DNA of 64,000 bases, from the NCBI GenBank assembly GCA_034408725.1, contig JAWXCN010000032.1, positions 20,453-84,452 of the forward strand, written 5' to 3'. Both the position numbers and the translations under genes were made by a program. The notes under the pieces were generated by a model, which had not been told where the DNA came from, made no database searches, and saw only the letters and a list, made by a program, of their open reading frames with translations. Positions 9,663 through 29,423 of the stretch are shown here, piece by piece (the stretch's first letter is position 1; every line of letters starts with the position of its first letter). Origin of the DNA: Candidatus Hydrogenedentota bacterium (lineage in GTDB: Bacteria; Hydrogenedentota; Hydrogenedentia; Hydrogenedentales; SLHB01).

Positions 9663-9724
9663 TGTAGGCTCCGTGGTGTGTTTGACGATCTGTCGGATCA
9701 GTCCGATCAGCCGGATTTTTGGTA

Positions 9725-10429
9725 TCAGCCGTCTCCGCGCCGTATGAGATTCAGCGGAATATCCAACCCCATCCGGAACAGGTAATACAACGGGCGCAAC
9801 CCCGCGTGCATAGATTTACCAGCGCTTGGAAACATTGTCACCGGCAATTCCGCGATCCGCACGCCATGCCGGTGCAGCATCACGATGACATCCACGTCGG
9901 GATAATCAACGGGATAAGAGTCGTGCGCATACAACTCGAGTACGCGCCGGTTCATGGCCTGAAAGCCGCTCGTCGGATCAGTGATGGTTTGGCCAAGCAA
10001 CAACGACGCGAGCCGGCGGAACACAAACATTCCCGCGCGCCGCGCAAGCGGTATCGCGTAAGTGCCACCTTCGAGAAATCGCGACCCGATGCACAAATCA
10101 CTTTTGCCGTCACGGACGTATTCGAGCAACCGCGGCATGCAGGCGGGATTATGTTGTCCGTCTGCATCAAGCTGCACTACGTATTGGAAACCCGCGCGCA
10201 ACGCGTACTTGTATCCCGTCTGCAATGCCACGCCGTAACCGAGATTGTAGGGCAGCGACAGGACGATTGCGCCTGCTTCAAGCGCGCGGTCCACGGTCGC
10301 GTCGCGTGAGCCGTCATCGATTACAACTATTGTGGTATTTGGGAGGGCATCGTGCACGAGCGCTATGACACGGCCAATGTTGGATTCCTCGTTAAAGGCA
10401 GGCAGAAGAATCAGGGTGTCGTTGCGCAT
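9725..10429 (-). CDS. Glycosyltransferase family 2 (DPM/DPG-synthase-like)
   Basis: 'LPAFNEE', 'VIDDGSRD', 'QLDADGQH', 'IGSRF', 'TDPTSGF'. Confidence 0.92.
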   Translation of the reverse strand: MRNDTLILLPAFNEESNIGRVIALVHDALPNTTIVVIDDGSRDATVDRALEAGAIVLSLPYNLGYGVALQTGYKYALRAGFQYVVQLDADGQHNPACMPRLLEYVRDGKSDLCIGSRFLEGGTYAIPLARRAGMFVFRRLASLLLGQTITDPTSGFQAMNRRVLELYAHDSYPVDYPDVDVIVMLHRHGVRIAELPVTMFPSAGKSMHAGLRPLYYLFRMGLDIPLNLIRRGDG

Positions 10430-10435
10430 GGCGGA

Positions 10436-10464
10436 AGTGTAAACCGGGGGTAACCAATCGTCAA
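10436..10464 (-). promoter_or_regulatory. Sigma-70-type promoter, probably giving a leaderless GT2 transcript
   Basis: Minus strand reads TTGACG-17 nt-TACACT-6 nt-ATG, with no SD. Confidence 0.55.
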
Positions 10465-10601
10465 CCGTCGCGGCTATATGTTGCTGCACGATGCGGCCGC
10501 GTGAGTCTAGGTATTGCCTGAACGCAGCGATTGACGGGGATAAGTTTGGAGTTGAACCTGCCGCGCCAAAACCGATGAATTCGGCGCTATGCAGCGCGGT
10601 T

Positions 10602-12074
10602 TTATTGAATGTACGGTGTGATTTCCAGGTCCCATCGACTTAATGTGACTGATTCAACATGCCCGTCGAGAAAAACTACCCCCCGCGCGGGCTGGTGTTC
10701 TGGCATTGCCGGCAGCAATTCGCGTGAAACCGCAACCGGCACGTCGCTGGCCAGCCTTGAGCGGCTCCAGGAGGGCATTTCGTCCCAAACAAGTGGAGCA
10801 TTCTGTGGGTCTATCTCTGCGGCGAACTCGATCAATTCACGTTCGGTTCGCGCGGGAGTTATCAAGTCGTAAGACAGATTTCCCTCTGCGACCCAAGGCG
10901 AATGCAGTATGTAAGGGTCCGCAAGATATTCGGGATATAGGGAGAACCATCCAGCGGGAAGATAGCCATTGTGCTCCCCCTGGAACATTTTCAGGGCAAG
11001 TCCAAGCAGTTTGAGGTTCATGAATTCCTGATTGCGCAATTCCTCCTGGGTAACGCCTTGCGCGGGACGCTCTTCGCCTGATAGCGGGAGCTGCGCGTCG
11101 CCTCGGTCCGTGGCCAGAAGGACCAGCGTCGGATTCTCAAATTCAATCTGCGCGATCGGCTTGTAGACTGGCGTCTCTCCGCCCCAGACTTCCCGTAGCC
11201 GCCGCTCCAGTTCAGTGAGGTTTTCCGCCGTTGGATTCTTTCGCAGTCCGAGCAGTTCTTCTTTCGGAAGACTCACCGTACTGCCTCTCTGTCCCGCCGC
11301 GAGATAGGTGATTTTCCGGCCGGGTTGATTGTCGAGGATCGATGGATCATCCAGAAAATCAGGCACGAGTTGGTTCAAGGAGACAGGAAAGGAACCATGA
11401 TGCGCGGCAGCAAAATCCAACAATGCCTGCGCGAGTTTCGTGACTTCGGACATGCGCCGCGCTCGCAGATCGATGGCTTCCTGTTCTTGTAGTATTTGCG
11501 CTTCCGGGAGTCTGATCAGTTTCATCCCTCCGTCGTCCATGGAGTAAAACTCCCCATTGAACGTGAACCAGCTTTGGCCGATGGCTTCGGTCAACGTTGG
11601 GTTGAGTTGTCCCTCGAACACGCGGGCAATGTTTTCCCGGGGTTCAAATGTGAGGATCAGTCGCAGCCCTGTTTCAACCTTTGCTTTTGCGCTATCGGAA
11701 TTCCCGCCAGTTACATTGAGCACGGCGCCATCGTGTTTGAATTGAAGCCGTCCACGTGAAAATTCCTCGCCGGTATCAGCGATGGTGAAACGTTCCCACG
11801 TTCCATCAAGTTTGGGTGCAATGTCGAGCTCTTCGGCTGCCGTAGGCTCCTCGACTGGTAGCGCGGCCGCGGGCATCACCGTTGGCGCGGCTTGTGGCGG
11901 TAGTTCCGGCGGGGTCGGGGCTGGTGCTGGCGATGCACTTCTGGAAGCGACTGGCTTGATTGGAGTTGGAGCGTCATCGGTCCGCGCGACGAAGTAAACC
12001 GCGACGCCGGCTACAACAGCCAGAACCAATATTTGGATGGACTTCATGATCGCGCGGACTGGTGGAGTGATCAT
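10602..12074 (-). CDS. Membrane-anchored hypothetical protein with degenerate DUF1559/H-X9-DG-like modules
   Basis: N-terminal TM and Pro-rich linker; 'MNLKLLGLALKMFQGEHNGYLP...LYPEYL' and C-terminal 'GVVFLDGHVE'; start is 12074 (GGGAG RBS) or 12047. Confidence 0.7.
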   Translation of the reverse strand: MITPPVRAIMKSIQILVLAVVAGVAVYFVARTDDAPTPIKPVASRSASPAPAPTPPELPPQAAPTVMPAAALPVEEPTAAEELDIAPKLDGTWERFTIADTGEEFSRGRLQFKHDGAVLNVTGGNSDSAKAKVETGLRLILTFEPRENIARVFEGQLNPTLTEAIGQSWFTFNGEFYSMDDGGMKLIRLPEAQILQEQEAIDLRARRMSEVTKLAQALLDFAAAHHGSFPVSLNQLVPDFLDDPSILDNQPGRKITYLAAGQRGSTVSLPKEELLGLRKNPTAENLTELERRLREVWGGETPVYKPIAQIEFENPTLVLLATDRGDAQLPLSGEERPAQGVTQEELRNQEFMNLKLLGLALKMFQGEHNGYLPAGWFSLYPEYLADPYILHSPWVAEGNLSYDLITPARTERELIEFAAEIDPQNAPLVWDEMPSWSRSRLASDVPVAVSRELLPAMPEHQPARGVVFLDGHVESVTLSRWDLEITPYIQ

Positions 12075-12255
12075 AGAAAACTCCCTGTATTGTTTACTGT
12101 AAATGGCGGCAGGGGTGTAAAGCGATCTATTGGTTGGCGACGGGACATGCTGGTCTTTTGGCAAACGAGGCGGTGCGAACGCGGATTATCGAGCAACGAT
12201 TGCGATGACCAGCACGAGCAGGAAAAAATAGGACGAGTATGAGGGATTGGGTGAA

Positions 12256-13459: not shown

Positions 13460-14239
13460 CTACACGTAAACCGTGCCTTCCGAGTATAGCACGGCGTTTC
13501 CTGCAATCGACACGCGAGCGCCGCGGTCTTCGCACCAGATTTCGCCGGTGCGGGCGGAGATTTGGCGGGCGAACAATGTTTTCTTTTTCAGCCGTTGTGA
13601 CCAGTACGGGATTAGCGTGCAATGCGCGGAACCCGTCACCGGGTCTTCGTTGATGCCTTGGGCGGGCGCGAAAAAGCGGGACACGAAATCGCAGTCCTTG
13701 CCTGGGGCAGTGGCGATGACGGCAAACCGGTCGAGGCCATTCAGTAGTTCGAAATCCGGGGAAAGTGCGCGGACCTGATCCTCGTTGTCGAAGACGCAAA
13801 AGTAGTCGCGCGCCGCGAGGGTTACACCGGGTTGCGCGCCGAGTCCCGAAACGAGATTTGGGTGTGGTGCGCACGGTTCCGGCGGACGGCTCGGGAAATC
13901 CATCTCGAAATTGTCTCCACTCTTCGCGACGACCAGTTCGCCGCTGGCGGTTTGAAAGCGTATTGATTCGCCGCTGAATTGCAGATGGTTGAACAAAACG
14001 AATGCACTCGCCAGCGTGGCATGTCCGCAAAGGTCAACCTCGACCGCCGGGGTGAACCAGCGCAAGCGGAAATGGCCATTCTCCGGAACGAAGAACGCGG
14101 TTTCCGACAGGTTGTTTTCCGCCGCGATGGCCTGAAGTGTGGAATCTTCCAGCCATGTTTCGAGCGGACAGACGGCGGCGGGATTTCCGCTGAATGGTTG
14201 CGTGGTGAATGCGTCTACGTGATATACCGGAATGCGCAC
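13460..14239 (-). CDS. PhzF family isomerase/epimerase
   Basis: 'VDAFT...GNPAAV', 'NLSETAF', 'EVDLCGHATLA', 'EDPVTGSAH'. Confidence 0.93.
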   Translation of the reverse strand: MRIPVYHVDAFTTQPFSGNPAAVCPLETWLEDSTLQAIAAENNLSETAFFVPENGHFRLRWFTPAVEVDLCGHATLASAFVLFNHLQFSGESIRFQTASGELVVAKSGDNFEMDFPSRPPEPCAPHPNLVSGLGAQPGVTLAARDYFCVFDNEDQVRALSPDFELLNGLDRFAVIATAPGKDCDFVSRFFAPAQGINEDPVTGSAHCTLIPYWSQRLKKKTLFARQISARTGEIWCEDRGARVSIAGNAVLYSEGTVYV

Positions 14240-14330
14240 AGGAGTTCTCCAATCGGTAGTTGTCTAATGGCTCCGCATGCGCACCATATTAGTCCGTTTC
14301 GTTGTTTTTGCGGCCAAGGAGTGATAGACT

Positions 14331-14339
14331 TGCTATAAT
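14331..14339 (+). promoter_or_regulatory. Extended -10 promoter element upstream of the FAAL-PKS operon
   Basis: TGCTATAAT about 180 nt upstream of the FAAL ATG. Confidence 0.5.
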
Positions 14340-14519
14340 CTTGCTCTAACGTTATGCAGCGGAGTTGGTTAGCGCGTATGCCCGGAGCAGGGATTCCAAG
14401 GGATTCGCGTGATACAAGTCCGCAACCGTGCAGCGAATTCCGCAGTCTAAGGATTTGCAGGAGTCTGTCCGAGGGACGACGGCTTCCTCCTTAATGAGGA
14501 TCGGTACGGAGTATATCGA

Positions 14520-16325
14520 ATGACGACAGCATCGGCAGCCGTAGCGTGGGCGCCACAAACCAGTGAAATTGAAAGCCGGGCGCAAAATGCCGGTATTCCC
14601 ATCCATGCCAACACCGTGGACGAAGTATTGCGCATTCGTGCGGAAGCGCATCCGGACGAGATTGCCTACGTCTTTCTCGAAGACGGCGAAGTTGAAGGCC
14701 CTTCGTATACCTATGCGCAGTTGGACCGCCGCGCAAAGGCGATCGCCGCGTATCTGTTGGAGCAATGCAACCCGGGCGACCGAGCGCTGCTGATTTTCCC
14801 GCCTGGCCTGGATTATATGGCCGCATTTTTTGGGTGCTTATACGCGGGCGTCGTGGCGGTGCCCGTGTATCCGCCCGATCCGGGCCGGTTAAACCGGAGC
14901 CTTCCGCGACTAAAAGTTATCGCGAACGACGCGGACACGCATATCGCGTTGACGACGAATTACGTGATGCCGTTGTGCGAAATGTTTTCCGCGCAGGACC
15001 CGGACTTCGCAAAGTTCACTTGGATGCCGGTGGACTCCATTCCGGATGAGAAGGCTGACAGTTGGCGCGGCGAAATCTCGAAGTCTGACAGCGTCGCGTT
15101 TCTACAGTACACTTCCGGATCCACGGCGGACCCGAAAGGCGTGATGGTCACGCATGCAAACCTCCTCTACAACCTTTGGGATTTGAGCTATCTCTGGCAT
15201 AGCGAAATGGCGCGGGGACGGCTGGTGACGTGGTTGCCGGCGTACCACGACATGGGGCTGATCTTTGGTCTGTTGTATCCCATGTATCTGCGGTGGCCGT
15301 GCTACGTGATGTCGCCGCTTGCGTTCTTGCAGCATCCAGTTCGATGGTTGCAGGCGATTGCCAAGTACAAGGCGACGTACAGTTGCGCGCCGAATTTCGC
15401 GTTTGATTTGTGTTCGCGAAAGGTTACCGCGGCGCAAAAGGCGTCCCTTGATCTGTCGTCATGGAGTGTTGCGGGAAACGGGTCCGAACCGATCCGGCCT
15501 GAAACGCTTGAAAGGTTTGTCGAAGCATTCAAGGAATGTGGCATAACGCCGAGCCTATTCAAACCCGGTTATGGTCTTGCCGAAGCCACGTTGAAGGTGT
15601 GCGGCACGCGACCGGACGAAATGTACTGGACACTGTCGGTTTCGGGTGAAGAACTTGAGCACCATCGTGTAGTCATTGTTGCGCGCGACACTCCTGGCGC
15701 GCGCACGCTCGTGGGCAACGGCCGCTCGCATCTCACCACGCGCACGATCATAGTTGATCGCGACACGGGCATTCAGTGCAAACCGGATACGGTCGGCGAA
15801 ATATGGGTCGCGGGGCCGACAATTGCCAACGGCTATTGGAACCAGCCTGAAGCGACGGATGAAATTTTTAATGCGCGGCTGTCGGACACCAACGAAGGGC
15901 CGTTCTTGCGCACGGGCGATCTGGGATTCCTTCACGATGGGGTCGTGTACGTCACGGGTCGAATCAAGGACCTGATTATTGTCGACGGCGCGAACCATTA
16001 CCCGCAGGACATCGAAATCGCGGTCGAGAAAAGTCACGCCGCCATTCGGCCCGGGTGCGTCATTGCGTTCTCAATTGTGGAGAACGGCGAAGAAAAACTG
16101 GTCGTCGTGGCCGAGGCCGGCGGCATCCCTGAAGGGGACAACGAAGCGAAGCCGGTCATTACGGCTGTGCGCAAAGCCGTCGCGCAGGAACACAATTTGC
16201 GGGTCCATAAAGTATGTTTGATCCAGCCGCGCTCAATCACAAAAACCAGTAGCGGAAAGTTGCAGCGGCAAGCGTCGAAGCGCGGCTACCTGGAAGACAC
16301 ACTCGACGTCATTGCGGTCGGATAG
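14520..16325 (+). CDS. Fatty acyl-AMP ligase (FAAL)
   Basis: 'FLQYTSGSTADPKGV', 'WLPAYHDMGLI', 'APNFAFDLC', 'GYGLAEATL' followed by the FAAL-type insertion, 'FLRTGDLGF', 'KTSSGKLQR'. Confidence 0.93.
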   Translation: MTTASAAVAWAPQTSEIESRAQNAGIPIHANTVDEVLRIRAEAHPDEIAYVFLEDGEVEGPSYTYAQLDRRAKAIAAYLLEQCNPGDRALLIFPPGLDYMAAFFGCLYAGVVAVPVYPPDPGRLNRSLPRLKVIANDADTHIALTTNYVMPLCEMFSAQDPDFAKFTWMPVDSIPDEKADSWRGEISKSDSVAFLQYTSGSTADPKGVMVTHANLLYNLWDLSYLWHSEMARGRLVTWLPAYHDMGLIFGLLYPMYLRWPCYVMSPLAFLQHPVRWLQAIAKYKATYSCAPNFAFDLCSRKVTAAQKASLDLSSWSVAGNGSEPIRPETLERFVEAFKECGITPSLFKPGYGLAEATLKVCGTRPDEMYWTLSVSGEELEHHRVVIVARDTPGARTLVGNGRSHLTTRTIIVDRDTGIQCKPDTVGEIWVAGPTIANGYWNQPEATDEIFNARLSDTNEGPFLRTGDLGFLHDGVVYVTGRIKDLIIVDGANHYPQDIEIAVEKSHAAIRPGCVIAFSIVENGEEKLVVVAEAGGIPEGDNEAKPVITAVRKAVAQEHNLRVHKVCLIQPRSITKTSSGKLQRQASKRGYLEDTLDVIAVG

Positions 16326-16364
16326 GCATTTGGCCACCTTGGCCTGAATTTAGGATGGTTTCCA

Positions 16365-19300
16365 TTGCAGAGTAAAGAAGCGATTCAAGCCTGGATCATC
16401 GCCCACCTTTCGGAAGAGACGGGCATTGATGCGCGCGAGATCGATCCTAACGCGGCATTTGATGATCTCGGTGTCGCCTCGCGCGACGCGGTGACCCTGT
16501 CGGGCGATTTGGAAGATTGGCTTGGCCGTACGTTGTCCCCGACGTTGTTGTGGGACCATCCGTCGATTGCGGCTCTGGCCGAACATCTTGCGGGCGGAGC
16601 GCCTCTGGCTGGAAGCGCAACGGCGCACGTGCTCGTGGCGGAAGTTCACGAACCCATTGCAATCATAGGAATTGGCCTTAAGGTTCCGGGTGCGTCATCG
16701 CCATCTGAATTTTGGTCAATGTTGATCGAGGGCCGGGACGCCATTGGCGCCGTGCCCGCGGATCGCTGGGACAACGCGGCCTATTACGATCCCAACCCCG
16801 GCACGGCCGGAAAAATGTACACGGAACGCGGCGGTTTTCTCGATCGCGTCGATTTGTTTGATGCCGATTTTTTCGGAATCCCGCCGCGCGAAGCGGCGCG
16901 TATGGATCCTCAGCAGCGGTTGTTGATCGAGGCGGCGTGGGAAGCACTCGAAGACGCGGGCATCGCGCCGCCGAGTCTCGCGGGCAGCGACACGTCGGTG
17001 TTCGTTGGCATCAGTTCGAGCGATTACGCGCAGCTTCAAATGAGCGATCCATCCCTGGTTGATGCCTACGCAGGCACGGGAAACGCGCACAGCCTCGCGG
17101 CAAACCGGATTTCATATTTCCTTGATCTGCGCGGGCCGAGCGTTGCGATTGATACGGCGTGTTCGTCGTCCTTGGTCGCAGTGCATCAGGCCGTGGGTAG
17201 TTTGCGTAAGGGCGAGAGCAGTATCGCGCTCGCGGGCGGAGTCAACGTGCTGCTCTCACCAGAAGTGAACATGGTGTTTTCGCATGCGCGCATGATGGCG
17301 CCGGACGGACGTTGCAAAACTTTTGACGCAACCGCGGACGGATATGTGCGGGGCGAGGGTTGCGGCGTCGTGGTGTTGAAACGCCTTTCCCGCGCGGTGG
17401 CCGATGGCGATTCGATCTATGCCGTGATTCGCGGTACCGCTATCAACCACGATGGACGAAGCAATGGCATTACCGCTCCGAACGGGTTGGCGCAACAGGA
17501 CGTGATTCGCCGCGCACTGGCCGATGCGGGCCTGCAATCAACCGACGTGGGATATGTCGAAGCACACGGCACGGGCACGTCGCTCGGCGATCCCATTGAA
17601 GTCGAGTCTTTGAAAGCGGTGCTGTTGCCGTCGCGCGACGCGAATGCGCCGGTCGTGCTTGGCGCGTTGAAAACAAATATAGGCCACCTTGAGGCCGCTG
17701 CGGGGATTGTGGGTTTGATTAAGACCGCGCTGGTGCTCGACAAAGGTGTGATACCCGCGACGCTGCACGTGCGCGAGGTGAACCCGCTGATCCAGTTGGA
17801 CGGCACGCCGATGCGAATCGCTGTCGAACAGGAGCCGTGGCCGCGGGGAGCGCGTCCGCGTATCGCCGGCGTCAGCTCATTCGGGTTCGGCGGTGCGAAC
17901 GCGCACGCGGTGCTTGAAGAAGCGCCAGAAACCGCAAACAAGAAACCGGCACATGAAGACCGTCCGCAGCACGTGCTTGCGTTGTCCGCAAAGACTGAAT
18001 CCGCGTTGCGAACGTTGGCGGGCTCATACGCAAACGAATTGAACACGCATCCGGGTTCTTTTCCGGACTTTTGCTACACCGCGAACATTGGCCGCTCGGG
18101 ACTCGAGAATCGCGCGTCGATACTTGGCTCGAACGCGGCGGACGCAGTCGCTGCGCTTCGGGAAATTGCCCAAGGCGAAACGCCGAAACCGGTGGTGGCC
18201 GGCACGGCGCCGCGCGGCGCTTCAACGCCGGTTGCATTTTTATTTACGGGCCAGGGTTCGCAGTTTGTACAAATGGGCCGTGGATTGTATGAAAGCAACC
18301 CGGTATTCCGGCGCGTCATGCAGGAATGCGACGAAGTACTGGGCACGCGGCTTGACAAGCCACTGTTGGACATCATCTATCCACGCGAGGGCGAGACTTC
18401 GCCGTTGGATGAAACGGCGTATACCCAGCCCGCGTTGTTTGCAATTGAATATGCGTTATCCGAAGTCTGGCGTTCATGGGGCGTCACGCCCGCGTGCGTG
18501 ATGGGCCACAGCGTGGGCGAGTACGTCGCCGCGTGCGTCGCGGGCGTGTTCACCTTCGAGGACGGCTTAAAACTTATCACCGAGCGCGCGCGCCTGATGG
18601 GCGCGATGCCGCCGGGCGGAACGATGGCCGCCGTGCTTATAGATGCGGAGACGGTGAAACTTGGACTTGCCGAACATGCCGGCGCGGTGACGATCGCTGC
18701 CGTGAACGGACCTGCGAACACGGTCATATCCGGTGCGGAAGAACTGGTTGATGCGATTTGCGCGCAGTTCAAAGCGCAGGGCATCAAATCTGTCAAGCTG
18801 GCGGTATCGCATGCGTTTCATTCGCCGCTGATGGACCCGATGCTCGAGCCGTTCGAAAAGTTTGCCGCGGGATTCACGTTTAAGCCGCCGCGTATTCCGC
18901 TCGTATCCAATCTGATTGGACAGATTCCTGCCGCGGATTTTGCGTTCGATGCAGCCTACTGGCGCAAACACCTTCGCGAAGCGGTGCAATTCCATGCCGG
19001 CATTCAGTCGATGGTGAGCCGCGGCTACACAACATTCGTCGAGGCGGGACCGCAGGCAACGCTGTCGAGTATGGCTGCGCGATGTGTCGAAAAGGACGCC
19101 GCCGCGTGGTTGCCGTCGCTTGCGAAAGGCCAGGACGATTGGCACGTAATATTGCGGTCCCTGCAAACGCTGTATGTAAAGGGCGCATCGATAAACTGGA
19201 AAAGTTTCGATGCCCCCTATTCGCGCGCGCGCGTTCCGATTCCCACGTATCCGTTCGAGCGTAAGCGGCATTGGCTTGATGTAAATGCGCAAGTCGCGGG

Positions 19301-22300
19301 CGCACCGGTTAAAAAAACGCATCCGATGCCAACACGCTTGCCATCAAAGGACATGGGCGATTGGCTGTACCACGTGCGGTGGATCGAGCAACCTCGCCAA
19401 CCGGCGACTACGGCTACTCCCACGCACTGGATTTTGCTCGCCGACACGAAAGGCGTCGCCGATGCGCTTGCGCAACGCATTCGCGCGCGCGGTGGCCGTG
19501 CGGTTCTCGTTCGACACGGCGCGAGTTATATCGCAACAGGGTCCGATGAGGTGATTCTTGATCCCGCGAGCGACATACAGTTCGATCAACTGTGGAACGA
19601 ATTCGGGACTGGGTGCGGTCGCGTAGTCCATTTGTGGTCACTGGATGCGCCGGCGCTGGAGGAAGCGACATTGGCGGCACTGCATCGCGCGCACGTGTTG
19701 GGTTGCGGCGCTGCGCTGCATTTGATTCAGTCCATCACCGCGTCCGGCGAACAGAGCGGGCGAAATGCGGCAAGTCATCCGCGGCGGCTGTTGTGGTGCA
19801 TTACGCGCGGCGCGCAGGTTGTCGCGGCATCTACCGCCGGTGTGCAGGCCGCGCAAGCGCCGCTGTGGGGATTTGGCCGCAGCGCGGCGTTGGAAAACGC
19901 GGCGCTCTGGGGCGGCATGATCGATCTCGATCCGCTCGCGGATGCGAATGATATCGAAGCATTGCTTTTCGAACTCGACGCGCCTGACGCTGAAAACCAG
20001 ATGGCGTTGCGCGGAGGCGCACGTTATGTAGCAAGGTTCGCGCGGATCAAGGACGCACTTCCCACAAACGGAATTGGCCACATCAAGTGCCGCGAAGATG
20101 CGACGTATGTCGTTACCGGCGGATTGGGCGGATTGGGCTTGCAAGTGGCGAAATGGCTTGGTGATCGCGGCGCGAAACATATCGTGTTGTTCGGACGCAC
20201 GCCACTACCGTCACGCGACCAGTGGGAAACATTAAGCGATGACGCGCGCGAGCGCGTCGATGCCGTGCAGGCGCTTGAGGCGCGAGGCGTTGCGGTGCGC
20301 TGCGAGCCCGTGGATGTTTCCGACGAGACGGCCCTTCAATCGTTTATTGATGCGCATGCGCGGAACGGAATGCCCGCGATCCGCGGCATCGTACACGCCG
20401 CGGGCGTCATTGACGATCATACCGTGAACGAGCTCAGCATGGACTCGCTGACGGCCGTGATGCGCCCAAAAGTGGACGGAACGATGCTGTTGCACCGTCA
20501 CTTTGGCGGGCACGGCAACGGTTCGGGCGATCCGCTTGATTTTTTTGTGATGTTTTCGTCGGTGGCATCCGTGATGGGATCGCCGGGCCAGGCCAACTAT
20601 GCCGCGGGCAACGCGTTCATGGACGCACTAGCCCATCATCGGCGCGCGCAAGGGCGCACCGCTCTGAGCATCAATTGGGGGCCTTGGGCTGAAGTCGGGA
20701 TCGCTTCTCGTGGCGATATTCAAAAGCGGTTGTCGATGCAGGGCATCGGCTGCATCCAACCTGAAGACGGAATTGCCGCGCTGGATTCGCTTTTGTCCGC
20801 GGATGCGGAACAGGTGGGCGTGTTGCAGGCGGACTGGGACAAGCTGGTCACGCGCGCGCCCGGCATTGCCGAGTCCCCGCTGTTCGCGGAACTGTTGAAC
20901 GGACACGCAAAACGGGCGGAAGCAGCACCCGGCAAGCCTCTGGGCCGTGGGGTGGCAAGCGACGTTGAGGCGATCGAAGCATTATTGCGGCGGCAGGTCG
21001 CGCAGATTCTTTATCGCGACGAGGAAGAGATATCCGTTGATCGCAATTTCGGCGAACTAGGCCTTGATTCGATCATGTTGATGGAACTCGTGAACAGCGT
21101 CGAACGCGACATTGGCGTGCGGTTGTTTCCGAAAGAACTGTTCGATCGGCCGACAATAGCCGCTCTTGCGCCTTATTTGGTCGGCGAAGTCGCTAAGTAC
21201 GAAGCGCGCGTGGAGGGTAAGGCCCCTTCGACCGGCGCAGGCGTGCGCGTCGCATTGCCGGCGGTACGGTTGAAAAAAATCGGCCCCGCGGTGCGCAACA
21301 AACCGATTGCATTTCTGTTGTCCGCGCCGCGTTCCGGTTCTACGCTTTCGCGCGTGATGCTCGCCGGACACAAGGACCTGTTTTGCCCGCCAGAATTGCA
21401 CTTTCTGCAATGCAACAGCATGGGCGAGTGGCGCGAAGGCATTGGCGCGACATATATCAGCGAAGGACTGCAACGCGCGTTGATGGAATTGCATAACCTG
21501 GATGCGGATGCGGCGCGGGTGATGTACGAGCAGTGGGTGCGCGAAGATTGGCCAGTGGAAAAGGCTTACGCGGCGATTCAGGAAGCGGCGGGCCCGCGCT
21601 TGCTCATTGACAAGTCACCTTCGTATGGAACGGACATCGAAGTGCTCGAACACGCTGAACGCCTGTTCGACGGACCGAAATATATTCACCTGGTGCGGCA
21701 CCCCTATTCCGTGATCGAATCTTTCATGCGCAATCGCTTCGAGAAAATACTCGGCGATACCGATGCCGAGCCGATGGCGTTGGCGGAAGAAGTCTGGACT
21801 TTGATGAATGCAAACATCAGCGATTTCTTATCCACTATCGACGACAAACGGAAATGCCTGGTTCATTACGAAGACATCGTCGCGAAACCCGAAGAGACGA
21901 TGCAGCGCCTATGCGAATTTCTCGATGTGCCATACGATCCCGCGGTCATCAAACCCTACGAAGGTGAACGCATGACTGACGGCATTCACAACAAATCGAT
22001 GGGCATTGGGGATCCGAATTTCCTCAAGCACAAGGAAATTGATCCGTCGCTGGGCGAAGTGTGGAAACGCATTCGGCTTCCGCGCAAGCTGGGCGGGTTC
22101 GCGCGGCGCGTCGCAGCCGAATTGGAATATGTTTTGCCAGTGGAAACGCCGGGGTCGATCAACGCCGATCTGGGTATTTCGTCAACCGTCCCGCACGTTG
22201 TCGCAATCCAGCCCAAGGGAGATCGTCCGCCGTTTTTCTGTTGCGCGCCCGCGGGCGGCATGACGTACATGTACTTCCATCTACCGCGCTACCTCGGCGA

Positions 22301-23129
22301 TGATCAACCCATCTACGGTTTGCAAGACCCTGCGCTGAATCCGCTGTTCGACCCGCACACGACAATGGAATCGTTGTGCGCGGAACAGGCGAAAGCGATC
22401 CGCAAGATTCAACCGAATGGACCGTATTACCTTGGTGGTTGGTCGTTCGGCGGCGCGGTCGCGTTCGAGACGGCGCAGCAGTTGATGGCGGCGGGCGAAC
22501 AGGTCGCCTATCTCGGAATTATCGATACGGAGGCCCGCATCGAAAAGCATCGCGCGAAAACCTGGAAGGATCGGCTGAGGTTGGCCGGAGGCCAGCTCAA
22601 GATGTCGTTTAAGGTCATCGGACATTGGGGGCCTTATGCGAAGGATTTCATTTATATTATTCTTCCGTCCGCATTGAAGAAAAAGGACAAGGCGGGTGAG
22701 CCGTCGTTGTGGGAGTACATCACGTTTGCATGGGCGGACGCGATTCGCCACACGCTGGTGAAGCGCGCGGACATTGCGAACGTGGTTACGCGTGACAGCC
22801 GGGTGTTGTTGGTGAAGCAACCCGCGACTCGCCGCACCCTGAAAGTATTGAAGGCGAATTTACGCGCATTGCTTGCGTATAAACTCAAGCCGTATCCGGG
22901 AACCATCACGCTCTTGCGCGCCGAGGACCAGACAATCATGCACAAGCTCCACGAGGACTGGACCCTTGGTTGGGGAGACCTGGCACAGGGCGGATTGGAC
23001 GTCGTCGAAGTTCCGGGCAATCACGCTGTGCTGTTAAGCCCGCCTTATATCGAGCGTGTGGGCGAAGTGCTGCGCGAGGGCATCGACAAGGCAATGGCCA
23101 AGTACGGCGCAACTCCGGACACCGAATAG
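16365..23129 (+). CDS. Type I PKS, ACP-KS-AT-KR-ACP-sulfotransferase-TE (Ols/CurM-like domain order)
   Basis: ACP1 'LGVASRDA'; KS 'DTACSSSL', 'EAHGTGT', 'KTNIGHLE'; AT 'GHSVGE' and 'HAFHS' (malonyl type); KR 'GGLGGLG', 'HAAGVIDD', 'YAAGN'; ACP2 'LGLDSIM'; ST 'FLLSAPRSGSTLSRVMLAGH...PPELH', 'DKSPSY', 'GDPNF' (about 21300-22080); TE 'GWSFGG...PGNH'; TTG start. Confidence 0.95.
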   Translation: MQSKEAIQAWIIAHLSEETGIDAREIDPNAAFDDLGVASRDAVTLSGDLEDWLGRTLSPTLLWDHPSIAALAEHLAGGAPLAGSATAHVLVAEVHEPIAIIGIGLKVPGASSPSEFWSMLIEGRDAIGAVPADRWDNAAYYDPNPGTAGKMYTERGGFLDRVDLFDADFFGIPPREAARMDPQQRLLIEAAWEALEDAGIAPPSLAGSDTSVFVGISSSDYAQLQMSDPSLVDAYAGTGNAHSLAANRISYFLDLRGPSVAIDTACSSSLVAVHQAVGSLRKGESSIALAGGVNVLLSPEVNMVFSHARMMAPDGRCKTFDATADGYVRGEGCGVVVLKRLSRAVADGDSIYAVIRGTAINHDGRSNGITAPNGLAQQDVIRRALADAGLQSTDVGYVEAHGTGTSLGDPIEVESLKAVLLPSRDANAPVVLGALKTNIGHLEAAAGIVGLIKTALVLDKGVIPATLHVREVNPLIQLDGTPMRIAVEQEPWPRGARPRIAGVSSFGFGGANAHAVLEEAPETANKKPAHEDRPQHVLALSAKTESALRTLAGSYANELNTHPGSFPDFCYTANIGRSGLENRASILGSNAADAVAALREIAQGETPKPVVAGTAPRGASTPVAFLFTGQGSQFVQMGRGLYESNPVFRRVMQECDEVLGTRLDKPLLDIIYPREGETSPLDETAYTQPALFAIEYALSEVWRSWGVTPACVMGHSVGEYVAACVAGVFTFEDGLKLITERARLMGAMPPGGTMAAVLIDAETVKLGLAEHAGAVTIAAVNGPANTVISGAEELVDAICAQFKAQGIKSVKLAVSHAFHSPLMDPMLEPFEKFAAGFTFKPPRIPLVSNLIGQIPAADFAFDAAYWRKHLREAVQFHAGIQSMVSRGYTTFVEAGPQATLSSMAARCVEKDAAAWLPSLAKGQDDWHVILRSLQTLYVKGASINWKSFDAPYSRARVPIPTYPFERKRHWLDVNAQVAGAPVKKTHPMPTRLPSKDMGDWLYHVRWIEQPRQPATTATPTHWILLADTKGVADALAQRIRARGGRAVLVRHGASYIATGSDEVILDPASDIQFDQLWNEFGTGCGRVVHLWSLDAPALEEATLAALHRAHVLGCGAALHLIQSITASGEQSGRNAASHPRRLLWCITRGAQVVAASTAGVQAAQAPLWGFGRSAALENAALWGGMIDLDPLADANDIEALLFELDAPDAENQMALRGGARYVARFARIKDALPTNGIGHIKCREDATYVVTGGLGGLGLQVAKWLGDRGAKHIVLFGRTPLPSRDQWETLSDDARERVDAVQALEARGVAVRCEPVDVSDETALQSFIDAHARNGMPAIRGIVHAAGVIDDHTVNELSMDSLTAVMRPKVDGTMLLHRHFGGHGNGSGDPLDFFVMFSSVASVMGSPGQANYAAGNAFMDALAHHRRAQGRTALSINWGPWAEVGIASRGDIQKRLSMQGIGCIQPEDGIAALDSLLSADAEQVGVLQADWDKLVTRAPGIAESPLFAELLNGHAKRAEAAPGKPLGRGVASDVEAIEALLRRQVAQILYRDEEEISVDRNFGELGLDSIMLMELVNSVERDIGVRLFPKELFDRPTIAALAPYLVGEVAKYEARVEGKAPSTGAGVRVALPAVRLKKIGPAVRNKPIAFLLSAPRSGSTLSRVMLAGHKDLFCPPELHFLQCNSMGEWREGIGATYISEGLQRALMELHNLDADAARVMYEQWVREDWPVEKAYAAIQEAAGPRLLIDKSPSYGTDIEVLEHAERLFDGPKYIHLVRHPYSVIESFMRNRFEKILGDTDAEPMALAEEVWTLMNANISDFLSTIDDKRKCLVHYEDIVAKPEETMQRLCEFLDVPYDPAVIKPYEGERMTDGIHNKSMGIGDPNFLKHKEIDPSLGEVWKRIRLPRKLGGFARRVAAELEYVLPVETPGSINADLGISSTVPHVVAIQPKGDRPPFFCCAPAGGMTYMYFHLPRYLGDDQPIYGLQDPALNPLFDPHTTMESLCAEQAKAIRKIQPNGPYYLGGWSFGGAVAFETAQQLMAAGEQVAYLGIIDTEARIEKHRAKTWKDRLRLAGGQLKMSFKVIGHWGPYAKDFIYIILPSALKKKDKAGEPSLWEYITFAWADAIRHTLVKRADIANVVTRDSRVLLVKQPATRRTLKVLKANLRALLAYKLKPYPGTITLLRAEDQTIMHKLHEDWTLGWGDLAQGGLDVVEVPGNHAVLLSPPYIERVGEVLREGIDKAMAKYGATPDTE

Positions 23130-23144
23130 GCGCGCGCCGGCCGC

Positions 23145-24065
23145 ATGATTCCACACCTGTTTGCGCTGCACCCCGCAGGTTCAAAACTGCCTTTTTTTCT
23201 TTGCGCCCCGGCCGGGGGCGTTTTGTTTCCGTGCTACAACGTGCTGAATTATTGGGACGTGGAACGTCCTTTTTACGCGTTGCAGGATCCCAGTCTGAAC
23301 AAGGATACGCCTTTATTTCAGACGGTCGCGGAACTGGCGCGCGCGAATCTTGATGTGCTGAAATCGTTTCAGCCGGAAGGGCCGTATTTGATCGGGGGCT
23401 GGTCTTTTGGGGCGATGGTGGCATTGGAAATGGCGCATATACTGAGCGCCGCGGGCGAAGAAGTTGAACTCATCGTGCTCGACATGCGCGTGAACGGTCC
23501 GGGGCGCGAATCACCGCTTGCGAACCTAACGCCGATTCAGAAGGCCGTGGTGATTCCCCGGCTTATCGTGGCGGTGTTTAGCCATACGGGACCCTATTTC
23601 CGTGACGGTTTCTATGTACTGTTTGGCGACATGATTCGCCGCGGATCGAAAGCGTCACCGTTGCTGACGTTGATCATGAAGCTGATGGGCCGAGCGCCGA
23701 TTGCGGACATCATCGAGCAGCGACCGCATCTCGATGGCATTCAGCCGCCGGGCCTGTTCAGGTGTCTGCGCGTGCTTGGCGCGAACATGCGGGCGTTTCG
23801 CAACTATGTGCCGAAACCGTTGGATATTCATGGCGCGTTGATCAAGGCCAGTGACAGCGCGTCGCTCGGGTTGCACGACCCGGATCCCGCAATGGGTTGG
23901 ACGAGCATCACGACAAGCGGGTTGGATATTTATGACACGCCGGGCAACCATGTGACGCTGATGCTGGAACCGGCGCTTGGGGTCGTGGGGAAGTGCTTGA
24001 ATGACGCGCTCGAAAACGCCGAACAACGGTTGTTGATGCCTGACACACTGACCGGCACGGACTAA
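23145..24065 (+). CDS. Stand-alone thioesterase, paralogous to the PKS C-terminal TE
   Basis: 'PFFLCAPAGG', 'YALQDPSLN', 'GPYLIGGWSFGA', 'PGNH'. Confidence 0.9.
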   Translation: MIPHLFALHPAGSKLPFFLCAPAGGVLFPCYNVLNYWDVERPFYALQDPSLNKDTPLFQTVAELARANLDVLKSFQPEGPYLIGGWSFGAMVALEMAHILSAAGEEVELIVLDMRVNGPGRESPLANLTPIQKAVVIPRLIVAVFSHTGPYFRDGFYVLFGDMIRRGSKASPLLTLIMKLMGRAPIADIIEQRPHLDGIQPPGLFRCLRVLGANMRAFRNYVPKPLDIHGALIKASDSASLGLHDPDPAMGWTSITTSGLDIYDTPGNHVTLMLEPALGVVGKCLNDALENAEQRLLMPDTLTGTD

Positions 24066-24086
24066 CACAGACCGCTGTGTTGTTGG

Positions 24087-24839
24087 GTGAGGGTGGAGGA
24101 AACGGTGATGTGGGAAAGCCCTCAACAATTTCCCGAATTGCGCGCGGGTGACGTCCATGTCTGGAAGATACCGCTTAACCAAACCCCGGCTGTGATCTGC
24201 GCGCTTTCGCGCGCCCTTGCCTCCGACGAACGCGAGCGGGCGGCGCGATTCCATTTTGAAAAAGGCCGACAGCAGTACATTGTTTCGCGCGGGGCGTTGC
24301 GAGAATTGCTGGGCGGATACCTGGGTGAAAGCGCGGCAGCGATTCGTTTTGATTATTCACCGCGCGGCAAGCCTGGACTCGACACAGCGCACGCAAGCGA
24401 TATTGCCTTTAATCTGACGCATTCGGGAGCGCTGGCGTTGGCGGCGTTCGCGCGCGGGGCGCGGGTTGGCGTGGACATTGAGCGTATGCGGGACGAATTC
24501 GATAGCCAACGCATCGCGGACAGGTTTTTCACGCCGGAGGAGTCCGCGGCGTTGCGCGGCGCGGATGAATCGGAACGGCTATTGCGCTTCGCGGAGCAGT
24601 GGACCCGGAAAGAGTCATTTATCAAGGCGCGTGGCGAGGGCTTGTCGTTTCCGCTGGATGCGTTTTCGATTCTGCTCGAGGGGGAGGAACTTGCGCTGCG
24701 CATTGCGCAGAGTCCAGTGGAAGCGGGGAGGTGGACGGTGCGCGATCTGGAAATTGATGAAGGGTATGCGGCGGCGTTGTGTGTTGAAGCGCGGGGGAGT
24801 GGGATGCGCGGGTTTGTTTGGGAGGGGATAGAGACCTGA
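24087..24839 (+). CDS. Sfp-type 4'-phosphopantetheinyl transferase
   Basis: 'RGKP', 'FNLTHSG', 'VGVDIE', 'WTRKESFIKARGEGL'. Confidence 0.93.
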   Translation: MRVEETVMWESPQQFPELRAGDVHVWKIPLNQTPAVICALSRALASDERERAARFHFEKGRQQYIVSRGALRELLGGYLGESAAAIRFDYSPRGKPGLDTAHASDIAFNLTHSGALALAAFARGARVGVDIERMRDEFDSQRIADRFFTPEESAALRGADESERLLRFAEQWTRKESFIKARGEGLSFPLDAFSILLEGEELALRIAQSPVEAGRWTVRDLEIDEGYAAALCVEARGSGMRGFVWEGIET

Positions 24840-24864
24840 GGAAGGTTGGTGTGGCGCGGGGGGA

Positions 24865-24914
24865 TGGAGACCTGTCGGTCGTGGGAGTGGCGCGGTCGGG
24901 AGACCGGCCACAAC
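24865..24914 (+). repeat. REP-like element, family A, copy 2
   Basis: TGGAGACCTGTCGGTCGTGGGAGTGGCGCGGTCGGGAGACCGGCCACAAC. Confidence 0.85.
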
Positions 24915-24936
24915 AAAAGGAGGGAACCTGCCACAA

Positions 24937-24982
24937 CGTGCTCGTGCTCGTGCTCGTAATCGTAATCGTAATCGTAATCGTA
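24937..24982. repeat. Compound hexamer microsatellite (CGTGCT)3(CGTAAT)4
   Basis: Read directly; reverse complement of the tract type at 35777. Confidence 0.9.
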
Positions 24983-25122
24983 TGTCGTTGGCTCGATTGC
25001 GATGACAATTACGAAGAAGAAAATTCTGAATTCAATTGCGATCCTCCTACGCCCTCCGAAGCGGCAGGGCTGCGAAGGACGGTTTGCGATTACGGGTTGG
25101 GGGTGGTCGACGGGACTGAAGG

Positions 25123-25527
25123 TTATGGATTTGGCCAAACCCACGTCGTGCGGGTTGCGACTTCAAGATCGTTTCCAGCGGGATCGCGGAAATAGATCGA
25201 ATGACCGCCGCTTGGCCAGTCTACTTCCGATTCTATTGCGACGCCATTGCCCAATAGATGTTTGCGCCAAGCGTCCACTTCGTCGTCGCCAATTTCGAAG
25301 GCGGCGTGTCCCGCGCCACGCGCGCCATGTCCTCCGAAGGGCGAATCCGGGTCGCTGGTTGATTCCGGATTAAACAAAAGAAACATCGTTGTGCCGCAAC
25401 GGAAAAAGACGTGGCGGCCTTCCTGTTTTGCATAAAAATCGAGACCGATCATGTCCCGGTAAAATCGGTCGGCGGCTTCGAGGTTATCGACATAGAGGCA
25501 GGTTTCGAGAATGCGCGTCGCTTTCAT
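25123..25527 (-). CDS. VOC / glyoxalase family protein
   Basis: 'ILETCLYVDNL', 'GHAAF', 'SIYFRDPAGNDLE'. Confidence 0.9.
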   Translation of the reverse strand: MKATRILETCLYVDNLEAADRFYRDMIGLDFYAKQEGRHVFFRCGTTMFLLFNPESTSDPDSPFGGHGARGAGHAAFEIGDDEVDAWRKHLLGNGVAIESEVDWPSGGHSIYFRDPAGNDLEVATRTTWVWPNP

Positions 25528-26045
25528 GGTCCGACTTCCTTTTGAATCTCCAGCGCCGGACGACAAAGTTTATCGAAAATCGCCGGTTCCACTGATTGCA
25601 GTCTCGAACCTTGAGGTTTTCCTTCGCGCGTCGTGAGATATAGTGCTTCGCCATTTATCGAAAAGGCGCTAAGTTTACCGTCGGTTTCGATAAGCAATTC
25701 CGCAGAGCCGTAGAACCCTGATATATCCCTTTGAGATCTAACCGATATCCTTGCTGGTGTTGGGACTGGATCGCCTATATAGCGCCGACTGTAGTAAAGA
25801 ATGCGATTGCTATTGAGTGTGCAGATGCTATCAGGTTCTCGCGAAAACAGCACTACAATTTCCGCTTCAGTCATACCCAACATTAAGCGCTGGTAACTTG
25901 CGTGGAACGCTCTTACGTCTCTGAGCATCCACGGAAAGTGAAGGATTGGAAGACCGGCAATTAGAAGGACGATGAGTAGGGAGGATACTAGAATCCCGCG
26001 CCGTGATAGCCGCTTGTTCAGGATCCTAATCAATCTTTTTATCAC
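25524..26045 (-). CDS. Hypothetical membrane-anchored protein (lower GC than neighbours)
   Basis: One N-terminal TM; 'LMLGMTEAEIV' resembles a BamE/SmpA-type motif; 4-nt overlaps with both neighbours. Confidence 0.6.
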   Translation of the reverse strand: MIKRLIRILNKRLSRRGILVSSLLIVLLIAGLPILHFPWMLRDVRAFHASYQRLMLGMTEAEIVVLFSREPDSICTLNSNRILYYSRRYIGDPVPTPARISVRSQRDISGFYGSAELLIETDGKLSAFSINGEALYLTTREGKPQGSRLQSVEPAIFDKLCRPALEIQKEVGP

Positions 26046-28511: not shown

Positions 28512-29423
28512 ATGCGAATGCAGGCAGCGGTGATTTGTGCGGCCCTTTGTCTGGCTGGTGCGGCAAATGGAGAGGACGACATTTTTGATCGTGTCAAACA
28601 CGGGTACGCGGAAAACCAGGGAGTGAAAGTTCATTACGCGTCGCTGGGTGAAGGCCCGCTCGTAATTATGATCCACGGATTCCCCGACTTCTGGTATTCG
28701 TGGCGGAGCCAAATGGCCGCGCTTTCCGACCAGTTTACGCGCGTCGCAATGGACCTTCGCGGATACAACCTCAGCGATAAGCCTGCGGGCAATGAGAATT
28801 ACGCGATGCCGCATATCCTCGGCGACGTGGCCGCGGTGATCAAGGCCAACGGCGCGGAAAAGGCGACAGTCGTCGGCCACGATTGGGGCGGGGCGATTGC
28901 GTGGCAATTCGCAATGCACATGCCGCAGATGGTCGAGCGCTTGGTGATTTGCAATCTGCCGCACCCTCGCGGGTTCATGCGCGAGATGGCCAACAACCCG
29001 GAGCAGCAGAAGAACAGCGCGTACGCCCGCGGGTTTCAAAAGGAAGGCGCGGAAAAGGGATTGAGCGCGGAAGGCCTGGCGGGATTCGTCGCCAAGGGAG
29101 ATCCAGCGGTGACGGCGCGATACGTAGAGGCGTTCAAACAGTCCGACTTCACGGCGATGCTCGCTTACTACAAGGTCAACTATCCGCGCGAACCGTATCA
29201 GGAAGATTCGGGGCCGGTGATTCGCATCGCTGTTCCGGTGCTCGTGTTTCACGGGTTGAAAGACACCGCGCTCGGCGCGAAGGCATTGAACGATACGTGG
29301 GATTGGCTCGACGCAGACCTTACGCTGGTAACCGTGCCGAATGCCAACCATTGGGTACATCACGACGCGCCGGAGCTGGTGTCGAAGACAATGAAATTCT
29401 GGTTGGCGCGGGACGCGAAGTAA
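28512..29423 (+). CDS. Secreted alpha/beta hydrolase (epoxide-hydrolase-like)
   Basis: Signal peptide; 'HGFPD', 'DLRGYNLS', 'GHDWGG', 'HWVHHD'. Confidence 0.9.

Follow-up and report, generated by a model that had tools for sequence, protein, structure and literature searches.

The window considered here is a 64,000-nucleotide stretch of DNA, contig C32 of a 5.17-Mb metagenome-assembled genome (MAG) of Candidatus Hydrogenedentota that comprises 280 contigs and is 92% complete; all coordinates are positions within this window. Positions 14520-24839 hold four co-oriented genes, which encode a stand-alone fatty acyl-AMP ligase (FAAL), a polyketide synthase (PKS) of type I, a free-standing thioesterase (TE2) and a 4'-phosphopantetheinyl transferase (PPTase). 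Within the synthase a loading acyl carrier protein (ACP0) is followed by a ketosynthase (KS), an acyltransferase (AT) and a ketoreductase (KR) domain, a second carrier (ACP1), a sulfotransferase (ST) and an in-line thioesterase (TE1). Up to the ST this resembles the cyanobacterial olefin synthase (Ols), and it is the enzyme behind the ST that sets the operon apart. The first-pass annotation of the window had described a complete operon with all catalytic motifs intact, and so it is: each open reading frame (ORF) is in place on the plus strand, with gaps of 39, 15 and 21 nt between ORF1 and ORF2, ORF2 and ORF3, and ORF3 and ORF4, respectively (Table 1).

Table 1. Genes and domains of the FAAL-PKS-ST operon
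Feature	Position	Strand	Evidence
ORF1, stand-alone FAAL, 601 aa	14520..16325	+	Pfam AMP-binding 1.1e-65 and AMP-dom_DIP2-like 1.6e-12 (C-terminal)
ORF2, type I PKS ACP0-KS-AT-KR-ACP1-ST-TE1, 2254 aa, TTG start	16365..23129	+	Pfam
ACP0, loading carrier domain	16386..16604	+	second PP-binding stretch; Ser in GVASRD
KS, Cys-His-His	16650..17771	+	PF00109 2.8e-101, PF02801 4.2e-43
AT, malonyl-CoA type	18237..19184	+	PF00698 1.8e-63; GHSVG, HAFH
KR, B-type	20100..20693	+	PF08659 1.7e-63
ACP1, carrier of the extended chain	20982..21176	+	PF00550 best stretch, residues 1540-1604; LGLDSI
ST, PAPS-dependent sulfotransferase, CurM/Ols (KR-coupled) clade	21300..22145	+	Sulfotransfer_3 7e-29
TE1, in-line type I thioesterase, long helical lid	22185..23126	+	PF00975 6.4e-28
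TE2 (ORF3), free-standing type-I-like thioesterase, 306 aa	23145..24065	+	PF00975 2.2e-18
ORF4, Sfp/HetI-type 4'-phosphopantetheinyl transferase, 250 aa	24087..24839	+	ACPS PF01648 1e-19; AASDHPPT_N PF22624 5.1e-10

The adjoining genes have unrelated housekeeping functions (PhzF-like, YjeF_N, glyoxalase, HAD, PRTase and sigma-70 factor), so the functional unit is taken to be these four genes. A scan of positions 13900-25600 gives 2 promoter-like sites where 5.2 are expected by chance and 17 terminator-like sites where 15.3 are expected. The same 2254-aa synthase is already present in the protein database as entry P0001.

Predicted route from fatty acid to sulfated chain

With ORF1 the FAAL models rank first in NCBIfam, at 461 and 432 bits, which is under their curated cut-offs and far above the CoA-ligase models. 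Over ~570 aa the protein shares 43-47% identity with the FAAL domain that is fused into the Ols proteins of Pannus (P0092), Xenococcus PCC 7305 (P0096) and Limnothrix (P0101), and its predicted role is to charge the synthase's N-terminal ACP with a fatty acid. At that end of ORF2 the ACP-KS structures of Pks13 begin to align at residues 7-9, and the attachment serine of ACP0 (GVASRD) aligns with the serine of the DS motif in the cyanobacterial Ols ACP0; the corresponding serine of ACP1 (LGLDSI) is conserved. The KS has the motifs TACSS, HGTGT and NIGH and finds its best structural match in the KS-AT of CurL (4MZ0, 3.6e-282). The AT carries GHSVG and HAFH and is of the malonyl type, following the motif rule given for HAFH in PMC7327777. 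In the KR, which aligns with the Ols KRs, a GGLGGLG motif is followed by HAAGVIDD, with IDD at the LDD position that marks a B-type domain, and by the catalytic tyrosine in NYAAGN; such a KR is predicted to give a (3R)-hydroxyl. The 3R-hydroxyl is also the form used by CurM/Ols-type STs. The domains from KS to ACP1 would thus make up a single KS-AT(malonyl)-KR-ACP extension module with a 3-hydroxyacyl-ACP as its predicted product.

The carriers depend on a PPTase, and ORF4 is a plausible source of it. In NCBIfam it scores highest with HetI, at 171 bits and below the equivalog cut-off of 370, and the two-lobed ACPS fold (PF22624 and PF01648) and the length, within ~230-250 aa, point to the Sfp type. 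The gene adjoins the synthase in the Hydrogenedentota and Chloroflexota loci described below. A 263-aa ORF without a Pfam match overlaps it on the minus strand (24353-25144), and the apparent conservation of this ORF in relatives is most easily explained as a reflection of the PPTase gene on the other strand.

The ST aligns without gaps over ~282 residues with the ST structures of Ols (4GOX, 1.4e-93) and CurM (4GBM, 4.3e-91). A tree of 83 ST domains falls into two clades, one in which the ST is coupled to a KR and another in which it is coupled to the adenylation (A) domain of a nonribosomal peptide synthetase (NRPS) module; the ST of the window lies in the KR-coupled clade together with every CurM and Ols ST. 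Its motifs PRSGST and PPELH, which we take to be catalytic, are invariant in an ST-TE alignment of seven sequences (A1). The domain is an in-line ST of the CurM/Ols clade, placed behind an ACP and predicted to depend on 3'-phosphoadenosine 5'-phosphosulfate (PAPS). The same genome encodes an adenosine 5'-phosphosulfate kinase, so that PAPS can be made.

The enzymes would act in the following order. The PPTase would prime both ACPs, after which the FAAL would adenylate a free fatty acid (Cn) and load it onto ACP0. The KS and AT would then add one malonyl unit, which the B-type KR would reduce to (3R)-3-hydroxy-C(n+2)-acyl-ACP1, prior to transfer of sulfate from PAPS to the 3-hydroxyl by the ST to generate 3-sulfooxyacyl-ACP1. 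By homology the pathway is well supported up to this (3R)-3-sulfooxyacyl-ACP.

The thioesterases behind the sulfotransferase

In CurM and Ols the ST is followed by a decarboxylating TE of a subfamily represented by structure 3QIT (Abhydrolase_1/6-type), whose members presumably share a Ser-His-Glu triad and a sulfate-binding arginine. Judged by sequence, neither TE of the operon is of this subfamily. Both TE1 and TE2 fail to match 3QIT even at E<=10, and with a profile of eight CurM-type TEs adjacent to STs in cyanobacteria TE2 scores 0.9 bits and TE1 is not hit at E<=100. A positive control, the TE that adjoins the ST in Moorena producens 3L, matches 3QIT at 1.3e-89 and, next in rank, retrieves dehalogenases and epoxide hydrolases rather than PF00975 TEs.

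TE1 and TE2 are instead PF00975 TEs of the NRPS/Pks13 type, with an alpha/beta-hydrolase core, a GxSxG serine, an aspartate behind the following strand, a histidine close to the C-terminus and a helical lid. The Ser-Asp-His triad is contained in GWSFG, D and GNH in both, invariant in TE1 and intact in TE2. The best structures for TE1 are those of NRPS TEs (7CRN at 3e-22, AB3403 and EntF) and of the Pks13 TE. An AlphaFold2 model of TE1, made from a 24-sequence alignment, has a mean confidence (pLDDT) of 77.8, with a core above 90 and a lid (residues ~131-230) at 39-72; used with Foldseek, this model retrieves 4ZXH, 7CRN, the Pks13 TE and the fatty acid synthase TE at the top, and among the matches listed there are only PF00975-type TEs and no CurM TE. 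Precomputed Pfam assignments draw the same line between proteins: the Ols/CurM-like ones have PF00561, PF12697 or PF12146 behind the ST and cover 44-50% of the ST-TE query, whereas those of Hydrogenedentota have PF00975 and cover 94-100%.

Where does such a TE come from? When 51 PF00975 TEs are placed in a tree, the ST-adjacent TEs of Hydrogenedentota group with NRPS TEs of their own phylum that do not follow an ST (L092/L093, L094 and L025), and apart from the ST-adjacent TEs of Chloroflexota and Acidobacteriota. The nearest relatives of TE1 are thus terminal TEs of same-phylum NRPSs, with L092/L093 at 37-39% identity and L110 having the architecture C-A-T-C-TE (condensation, adenylation, thiolation). 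The state of standing behind an ST in a PKS requires at least three changes on this tree, which is to say that the ST-TE junction has at least three origins. No residue is specific to ST-adjacent TEs when 11 PKS-type, 12 NRPS-type, 6 second and 22 non-adjacent PF00975 TEs are compared. Two arginines that are invariant in the seven sequences of A1, R527 and R538, were considered as ST-specific and were not upheld in this wider comparison, and R537 is present also in 14 of the 22 non-adjacent TEs. Because it groups with the NRPS TEs of its own phylum and has no ST-specific column, TE1 looks like an ordinary, locally recruited TE.

TE2 had also been reported in the first-pass annotation, and it is present with its triad intact; it is not a usual type II TE, being a type-I-like PF00975 protein 32-33% identical to TE1. 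Its best structures are 7CRN (3.5e-16) and the NocB TE (4e-15), and the type II TE RedJ (3QMV/3QMW) reaches only 0.019-0.024. In sequence TE2 does not resemble the RifR/RedJ/SrfD-type editing TEs, though it may still have an editing role. In the TE tree it groups, with a weak support of 83, with an NRPS TE of a congener. TE2 is confined to the genus of the window and is absent from a second genus that keeps the rest of the cluster.

A CurM-like TE acting in trans was sought at 28512-29423 (+), and this candidate was set aside: the gene encodes a full-length epoxide-hydrolase homologue (5NG7, 2.7e-58) that has just the generic N-terminal half in common with CurM-type TEs. Every syntenic relative retains this gene ~4 kb downstream of the cluster; it is probably unrelated to the cluster, though notable beside a possible alkene pathway.

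What follows the ST elsewhere was surveyed by searching species-representative genomes with alignment A1, which finds 579 ST relatives; the best 80 of these were classified by domain BLAST. A CurM-type TE lies behind the ST at 46 of the 80 loci, which include all the cyanobacterial ones as well as MAGs of Acidobacteriota, Vicinamibacteria and Actinobacteria and some unlabelled loci. A PF00975 TE directly follows the ST at 22, and no cyanobacterial locus among these best 80 has that arrangement. Ten of the 22 are of PKS type (Hydrogenedentota L012-L018 and Chloroflexota L019-L021), with the layout FAAL-ACP-KS-AT-KR-ACP-ST-TE[-TE]-PPTase where the contig is complete, and the remaining 12 are of NRPS type, mostly from Acidobacteriota and with the order C-A-T-ST-TE. 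A C domain follows a mid-line ST at ten loci, for instance in the Hydrogenedentota locus L074 (FAAL-ACP-KS-AT-KR-ACP-ST-C-A-TE), where decarboxylative loss at that stage is impossible. The ST context could not be assigned at two (L022 and L075). Among 1.84 billion cluster representatives at 50% identity, the best 150 matches contain ST-PF00975 77 times, ST followed by a CurM-type TE 28 times and ST-C 31 times, counts that are lower bounds rather than proportions, since the profile contains PF00975 and the ranking favours it. Nine of the 150 have KS-AT-KR-ACP-ST-TE(PF00975) within a single protein.

Several of these loci have features of their own. The Chloroflexota loci L019 (10278-12600), L020 and L021, from Ardenticatenaceae MAGs, encode FAAL-ACP-KS-AT-KR-ACP-ST with two PF00975 TEs and a PPTase; their ST-adjacent TE has a cysteine nucleophile (GGRCFGG), and the second TE, which has alanine at this position (GGHALGG), is probably inactive. 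Locus L024 (2078-20882), from an Anaerolineae MAG, has three in-line STs in the order FAAL-ACP-KS-AT-KR-ACP-ST-C-A-ST-C-A-ST-C, the first in the KR-coupled clade and the other two A-coupled, an organisation that predicts a multiply sulfated lipopeptide. In Acidobacteriota, C-A-(T)-ST-TE(PF00975) termination modules occur at L023, L027, L031, L035, L036, L039, L042, L043, L047, L054, L065 and L091, and their STs form a clade of their own, with 42 ST domains in the best 150 cluster representatives. The 1422-aa protein P0020 has the order FAAL-ACP-ST-TE(PF00975) without KS, AT or KR, its ST-TE part being 43-46% identical to that of the window, and its predicted substrate would be a ready-made hydroxy fatty acid, to be loaded, sulfated and released. 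The swf system with its R and ST domains (PMC3908369) was set aside as being of a different architecture.

Release of the chain and the fate of the sulfate

The operon can thus be read as a FAAL-primed, single-module extension line that would be Ols-like up to sulfonation and would then release its product through an NRPS-type TE. At this last step the prediction becomes uncertain. TE1 may take the chain through its Ser-Asp-His triad and hydrolyse the thioester, and the reading that we tentatively prefer to a 1-alkene is that it releases the intact 3-sulfooxy fatty acid, which would be an anionic sulfolipid or the building block of one. Decarboxylation to an alkene is not part of this reading because the specialised TE is absent and TE1 looks like an ordinary hydrolytic enzyme. 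Retention of the sulfate is further suggested because related lines pass the sulfated chain to C domains, and because the PF00975 TE SulM provides a precedent for keeping a sulfo group. The CurM-type TE, for its part, goes strictly with the terminal ST in cyanobacteria and often does so elsewhere, as the 46 loci of the survey illustrate. Carboxylates with a beta-sulfooxy or beta-phosphoryloxy group, serine O-sulfate and 3-phosphoglycerate among them, are stable in aqueous solution, so fragmentation should need catalysis. TE2 would be a later addition in this genus, most likely an editing or back-up TE, a role that terminal TEs have in tandem-TE NRPSs.

The first-pass annotation had the sulfated chain eliminate to a terminal alkene, a step that rests on the decarboxylating TE of CurM and Ols; with that TE absent, the alkene becomes one of two near-equal options. 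It would arise if the operon is a functional olefin synthase with a non-orthologous TE, such that TE1 hydrolyses the thioester, decarboxylative elimination of the sulfate takes place in its active site or soon after, and an odd-chain 1-alkene, one carbon longer than the primer as in Ols, passes into the membranes. TE1 would then be a second, convergent type of decarboxylating PF00975 TE. We regard this as a serious possibility that falls short of being probable, and much of what favours it weighs directly against retention of the sulfate. The architecture from FAAL to ST is identical to that of Ols at 41-47% identity, the ST is of the CurM/Ols clade and the KR is of the B-type, like the Ols KRs. 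The operon is minimal, as in Ols, and its conserved block contains neither an exporter nor an acyltransferase of the kind that a charged amphiphile might call for. TE1 has been kept adjoining the ST across at least four genera, with the fusion at one locus in more than one of them, a span which may have given enough time for a decarboxylating activity to arise convergently. The miniature FAAL-ACP-ST-TE protein P0020 would be odd as a mere sulfater of hydroxy acids and would make a neat alkene producer. Finally, the characterised terminal KR-ACP-ST-TE modules, as these are presented in PMC11730487, PMC6274090 and PMC5655351, all lead to a terminal alkene, by demonstration for CurM and Ols and by proposal for HlaB.

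Three further considerations count against a retained sulfate. The lid of the TE1 model is of low confidence (pLDDT 39-72), so no argument can be drawn from its pocket. No natural product that bears a free 3-sulfooxy carboxylate is known to us, and that the elimination following hydrolysis in CurM-type systems is enzyme-catalysed is a presumption. Against the alkene, in turn, stand the missing decarboxylating TE that defines the olefin pathway, the lack of any ST-specific residue in a TE1 that clusters with ordinary NRPS TEs of its own phylum, the regular company of CurM-type TE and ST in the survey, which suggests that alkene function needs that TE, and the kindred assembly lines of these phyla that hand the sulfated chain over to C domains.

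Release by some other chemistry is unlikely, though it would account for some of the same features. TE1 or TE2 could act as an acyltransferase towards a sugar, glycerol or amine, as the Pks13 TE does with trehalose, or the sulfate could be eliminated while the chain is still a thioester to give a 2-enoic acid, the ST thereby replacing a dehydratase (DH). The Pks13 TE and cyclising NRPS TEs are indeed among the closest structures by both sequence and fold, and this genus has a second TE that is catalytically intact by its motifs. Yet hydrolytic TEs are matched at least as well as the Pks13 TE, the conserved block has no genes for making an acceptor, TE2 is missing from the second genus that keeps the remaining cluster, and the enoate could be had more cheaply with a DH domain. 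The Chloroflexota counterparts have a cysteine nucleophile in their ST-adjacent TE, and the cysteine TEs SulM and ObiF are described as catalysing unusual ring-forming chemistry (PMC11298585); both TEs of the window, however, use serine.

Host lineage, novelty and known systems

That the host is not a cyanobacterium was suspected from the gene content of the window, and this is borne out by its closest relatives, which are Candidatus Hydrogenedentota MAGs. In a 5.8-billion-protein collection, all full-length matches to the ST-TE part that bear organism names come from Candidatus Hydrogenedentes/Hydrogenedentota MAGs at 60-76% identity, and among the species representatives of GTDB the best loci that carry a name are likewise labelled Hydrogenedentota, a phylum described as having no cultured isolate (PMC11406978). 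One label departs from this pattern: L070, a sequence of 33,850 bp titled 'uncultured Nitrospiraceae bacterium', has a TE identical to that of contig C447 of G019, from the window's own family, and its NCBI label looks wrong.

The locus is shared in the order YjeF_N/PhzF, cluster, glyoxalase-HAD-PRT-sigma70-hydrolase by the congeners G001, G002, L015 and L016 and by G009, L012 and L014 of a second genus, and in part by L017, with the flanking genes 58-89% and the PKS 56-68% identical. In five complete relatives without the cluster, compared as empty sites to judge gain against loss, only PRT-HAD(-sigma70) is syntenic. Since the same flanks recur in independent assemblies of two genera, a chimera is ruled out; the contig is not cyanobacterial either, and the cluster is vertically inherited in this lineage. 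The first-pass annotation had called it long-resident, which is true of four genera but not of the phylum as a whole: the full ST-TE synthase occurs in 14 of 135 Hydrogenedentota species genomes, the window's own included, and thus in 4 of 66 genera, a clade-restricted pattern made up of genus g1 (5/5, including the window's genome), g6 (5/6), g9 (3/3) and one genome of family f5.

It is correspondingly very improbable that the cluster is an artefact or a recent import, be it on a chimeric contig of the MAG, through binning of cyanobacterial DNA into a mat MAG, or as a cluster in decay. The idea deserves mention as the eight sequencing runs listed for this DNA, two of them possible sources and none of them an RNA run, are labelled microbial mat metagenome, an environment where cyanobacteria abound, and the genome is an incomplete one in many contigs. 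Apart from the shared flanks, it is opposed by a G+C content of 0.57-0.60 for the cluster, which matches the 0.54-0.61 of most of the window as had been claimed, by best-matching proteins that are from Hydrogenedentota while the cyanobacterial ones align just to the ST, and by reading frames that are all open and motifs that are all intact. The observations that had been named as fatal to the first interpretation were not made: besides the origin of the contig, the TE type is unlike that of every characterised system.

Two other features of the window lie outside the cluster. Positions 8088-12164, between MnmA and YjeF_N, hold a HAD hydrolase, a GT2 glycosyltransferase and a protein of 520 aa that has no Pfam match; this is a small lineage-specific insertion beside the cluster, MnmA and YjeF_N being close neighbours in G002/L016. 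On the minus strand, 49594-54434 is a patch of low G+C content (0.45-0.46 against ~0.56) with three proteins, namely a DNA methyltransferase of 427 aa, an 832-aa fusion of a Ser/Thr kinase with an ORC/CDC6-like ATPase, and a 353-aa protein without a Pfam match. Two of them match candidate 'CARF6' models of PADLOC (the 832-aa protein CARF_STK_AAA at 1.1e-24, the 353-aa protein CARF_CARF_CARF at 5.8e-21), and the patch looks like an acquired defence island with its CARF and kinase-ATPase parts split over two genes.

What is new about the operon is not that it is non-cyanobacterial but that a PF00975 TE replaces the decarboxylating TE in an otherwise complete Ols layout, and in an uncultured phylum; the size of the ST-PF00975 and mid-line-ST families is also new. 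The published survey of Ols homologues covered, by its text, cyanobacterial genomes only (PMC11730487). In the literature covered, to which most subscription journals and supplements did not belong, no description was found of a PF00975 TE standing behind an ST, of CurM-type STs in a mid-line position or of a Hydrogenedentota PKS. It is conceivable, and we put it forward with reserve, that the ST-PF00975 and mid-line STs of Hydrogenedentota, Chloroflexota and Acidobacteriota constitute an unrecognised and sizeable family in which O-sulfonation is a retained tailoring step, with the operon of the window as its simplest member.

ST-TE termination is the textbook route to a terminal alkene and a target for the engineering of hydrocarbons and polymer monomers. 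The operon is therefore something of a natural experiment: is a CurM-type TE needed for the alkene, or will any hydrolytic TE do once the beta-sulfate is present? If the sulfate is retained, the operon would make a 3-sulfooxy fatty acid in free form, and lipids of this class are not known from bacteria; the wider family would offer a toolkit for sulfation on assembly lines. If TE1 is a convergent decarboxylating TE, non-photosynthetic mat bacteria make Ols-type 1-alkenes and a new class of portable decarboxylating TE would become available. In either case this is the first concrete biosynthetic pathway to seek in Hydrogenedentota, with a bearing on lipid and hydrocarbon biomarkers in microbial mats.

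Of the known systems Ols is the closest. The domain order from FAAL to ST, which the first-pass annotation had recognised as that of Ols, is the same here, with the FAAL on a protein of its own, an arrangement that is also described for an Ols variant of Cyanobacterium stanieri (PMC11837247). A single BLASTP alignment with the three Ols proteins named above, at 41-43% identity, begins at ACP0 and extends as far as query residues 1927-1972, where the ST ends. The cluster is minimal, as in the Ols of the Picosynechococcus PCC 7002 type. The differences are the TE, which is of the PF00975 NRPS/Pks13 type here and of the decarboxylating CurM/Ols Abhydrolase type there, the extra free-standing TE and dedicated PPTase, and the host, which belongs to a non-photosynthetic uncultured phylum. 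CurM in the curacin A pathway and HlaB in that of the myxobacterial haliamide share the terminal KR-ACP-ST-TE, and HlaB, whose TE is reported to be 37% identical to that of CurM, shows that chain termination by ST-TE outside cyanobacteria was already known (PMC6274090). Their TEs are of the 3QIT subfamily, whereas TE1 has a Ser-Asp-His triad, a different lid and no detectable similarity to them; moreover, both end multimodular lines, unlike the single FAAL-primed module described here.

Two further systems resemble the operon in part. In sulfazecin biosynthesis the PF00975-type NRPS TE SulM acts on a carrier-bound substrate sulfonated by the PAPS-dependent SulN, and the sulfo group is kept (PMC11298585). 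SulN, however, is a separate enzyme that N-sulfonates diaminopropionate, in contrast to an in-line ST with predicted O-sulfonation of a 3-hydroxyacyl chain, and SulM forms a beta-lactam with a cysteine nucleophile in a Gln-Cys-Asn motif, where TE1 has the serine of GWSFG. The mycolic acid system FadD32-Pks13, finally, has the stand-alone FAAL, the N-terminal ACP of the PKS and the terminal PF00975 TE in common with the operon, and the FAAL, ACP0-KS and TE count its models and structures among their best matches, with scores far below the family cut-offs. Unlike the synthase of the window, Pks13 lacks both KR and ST, joins two long chains by condensation and uses its TE to transfer the product to trehalose.

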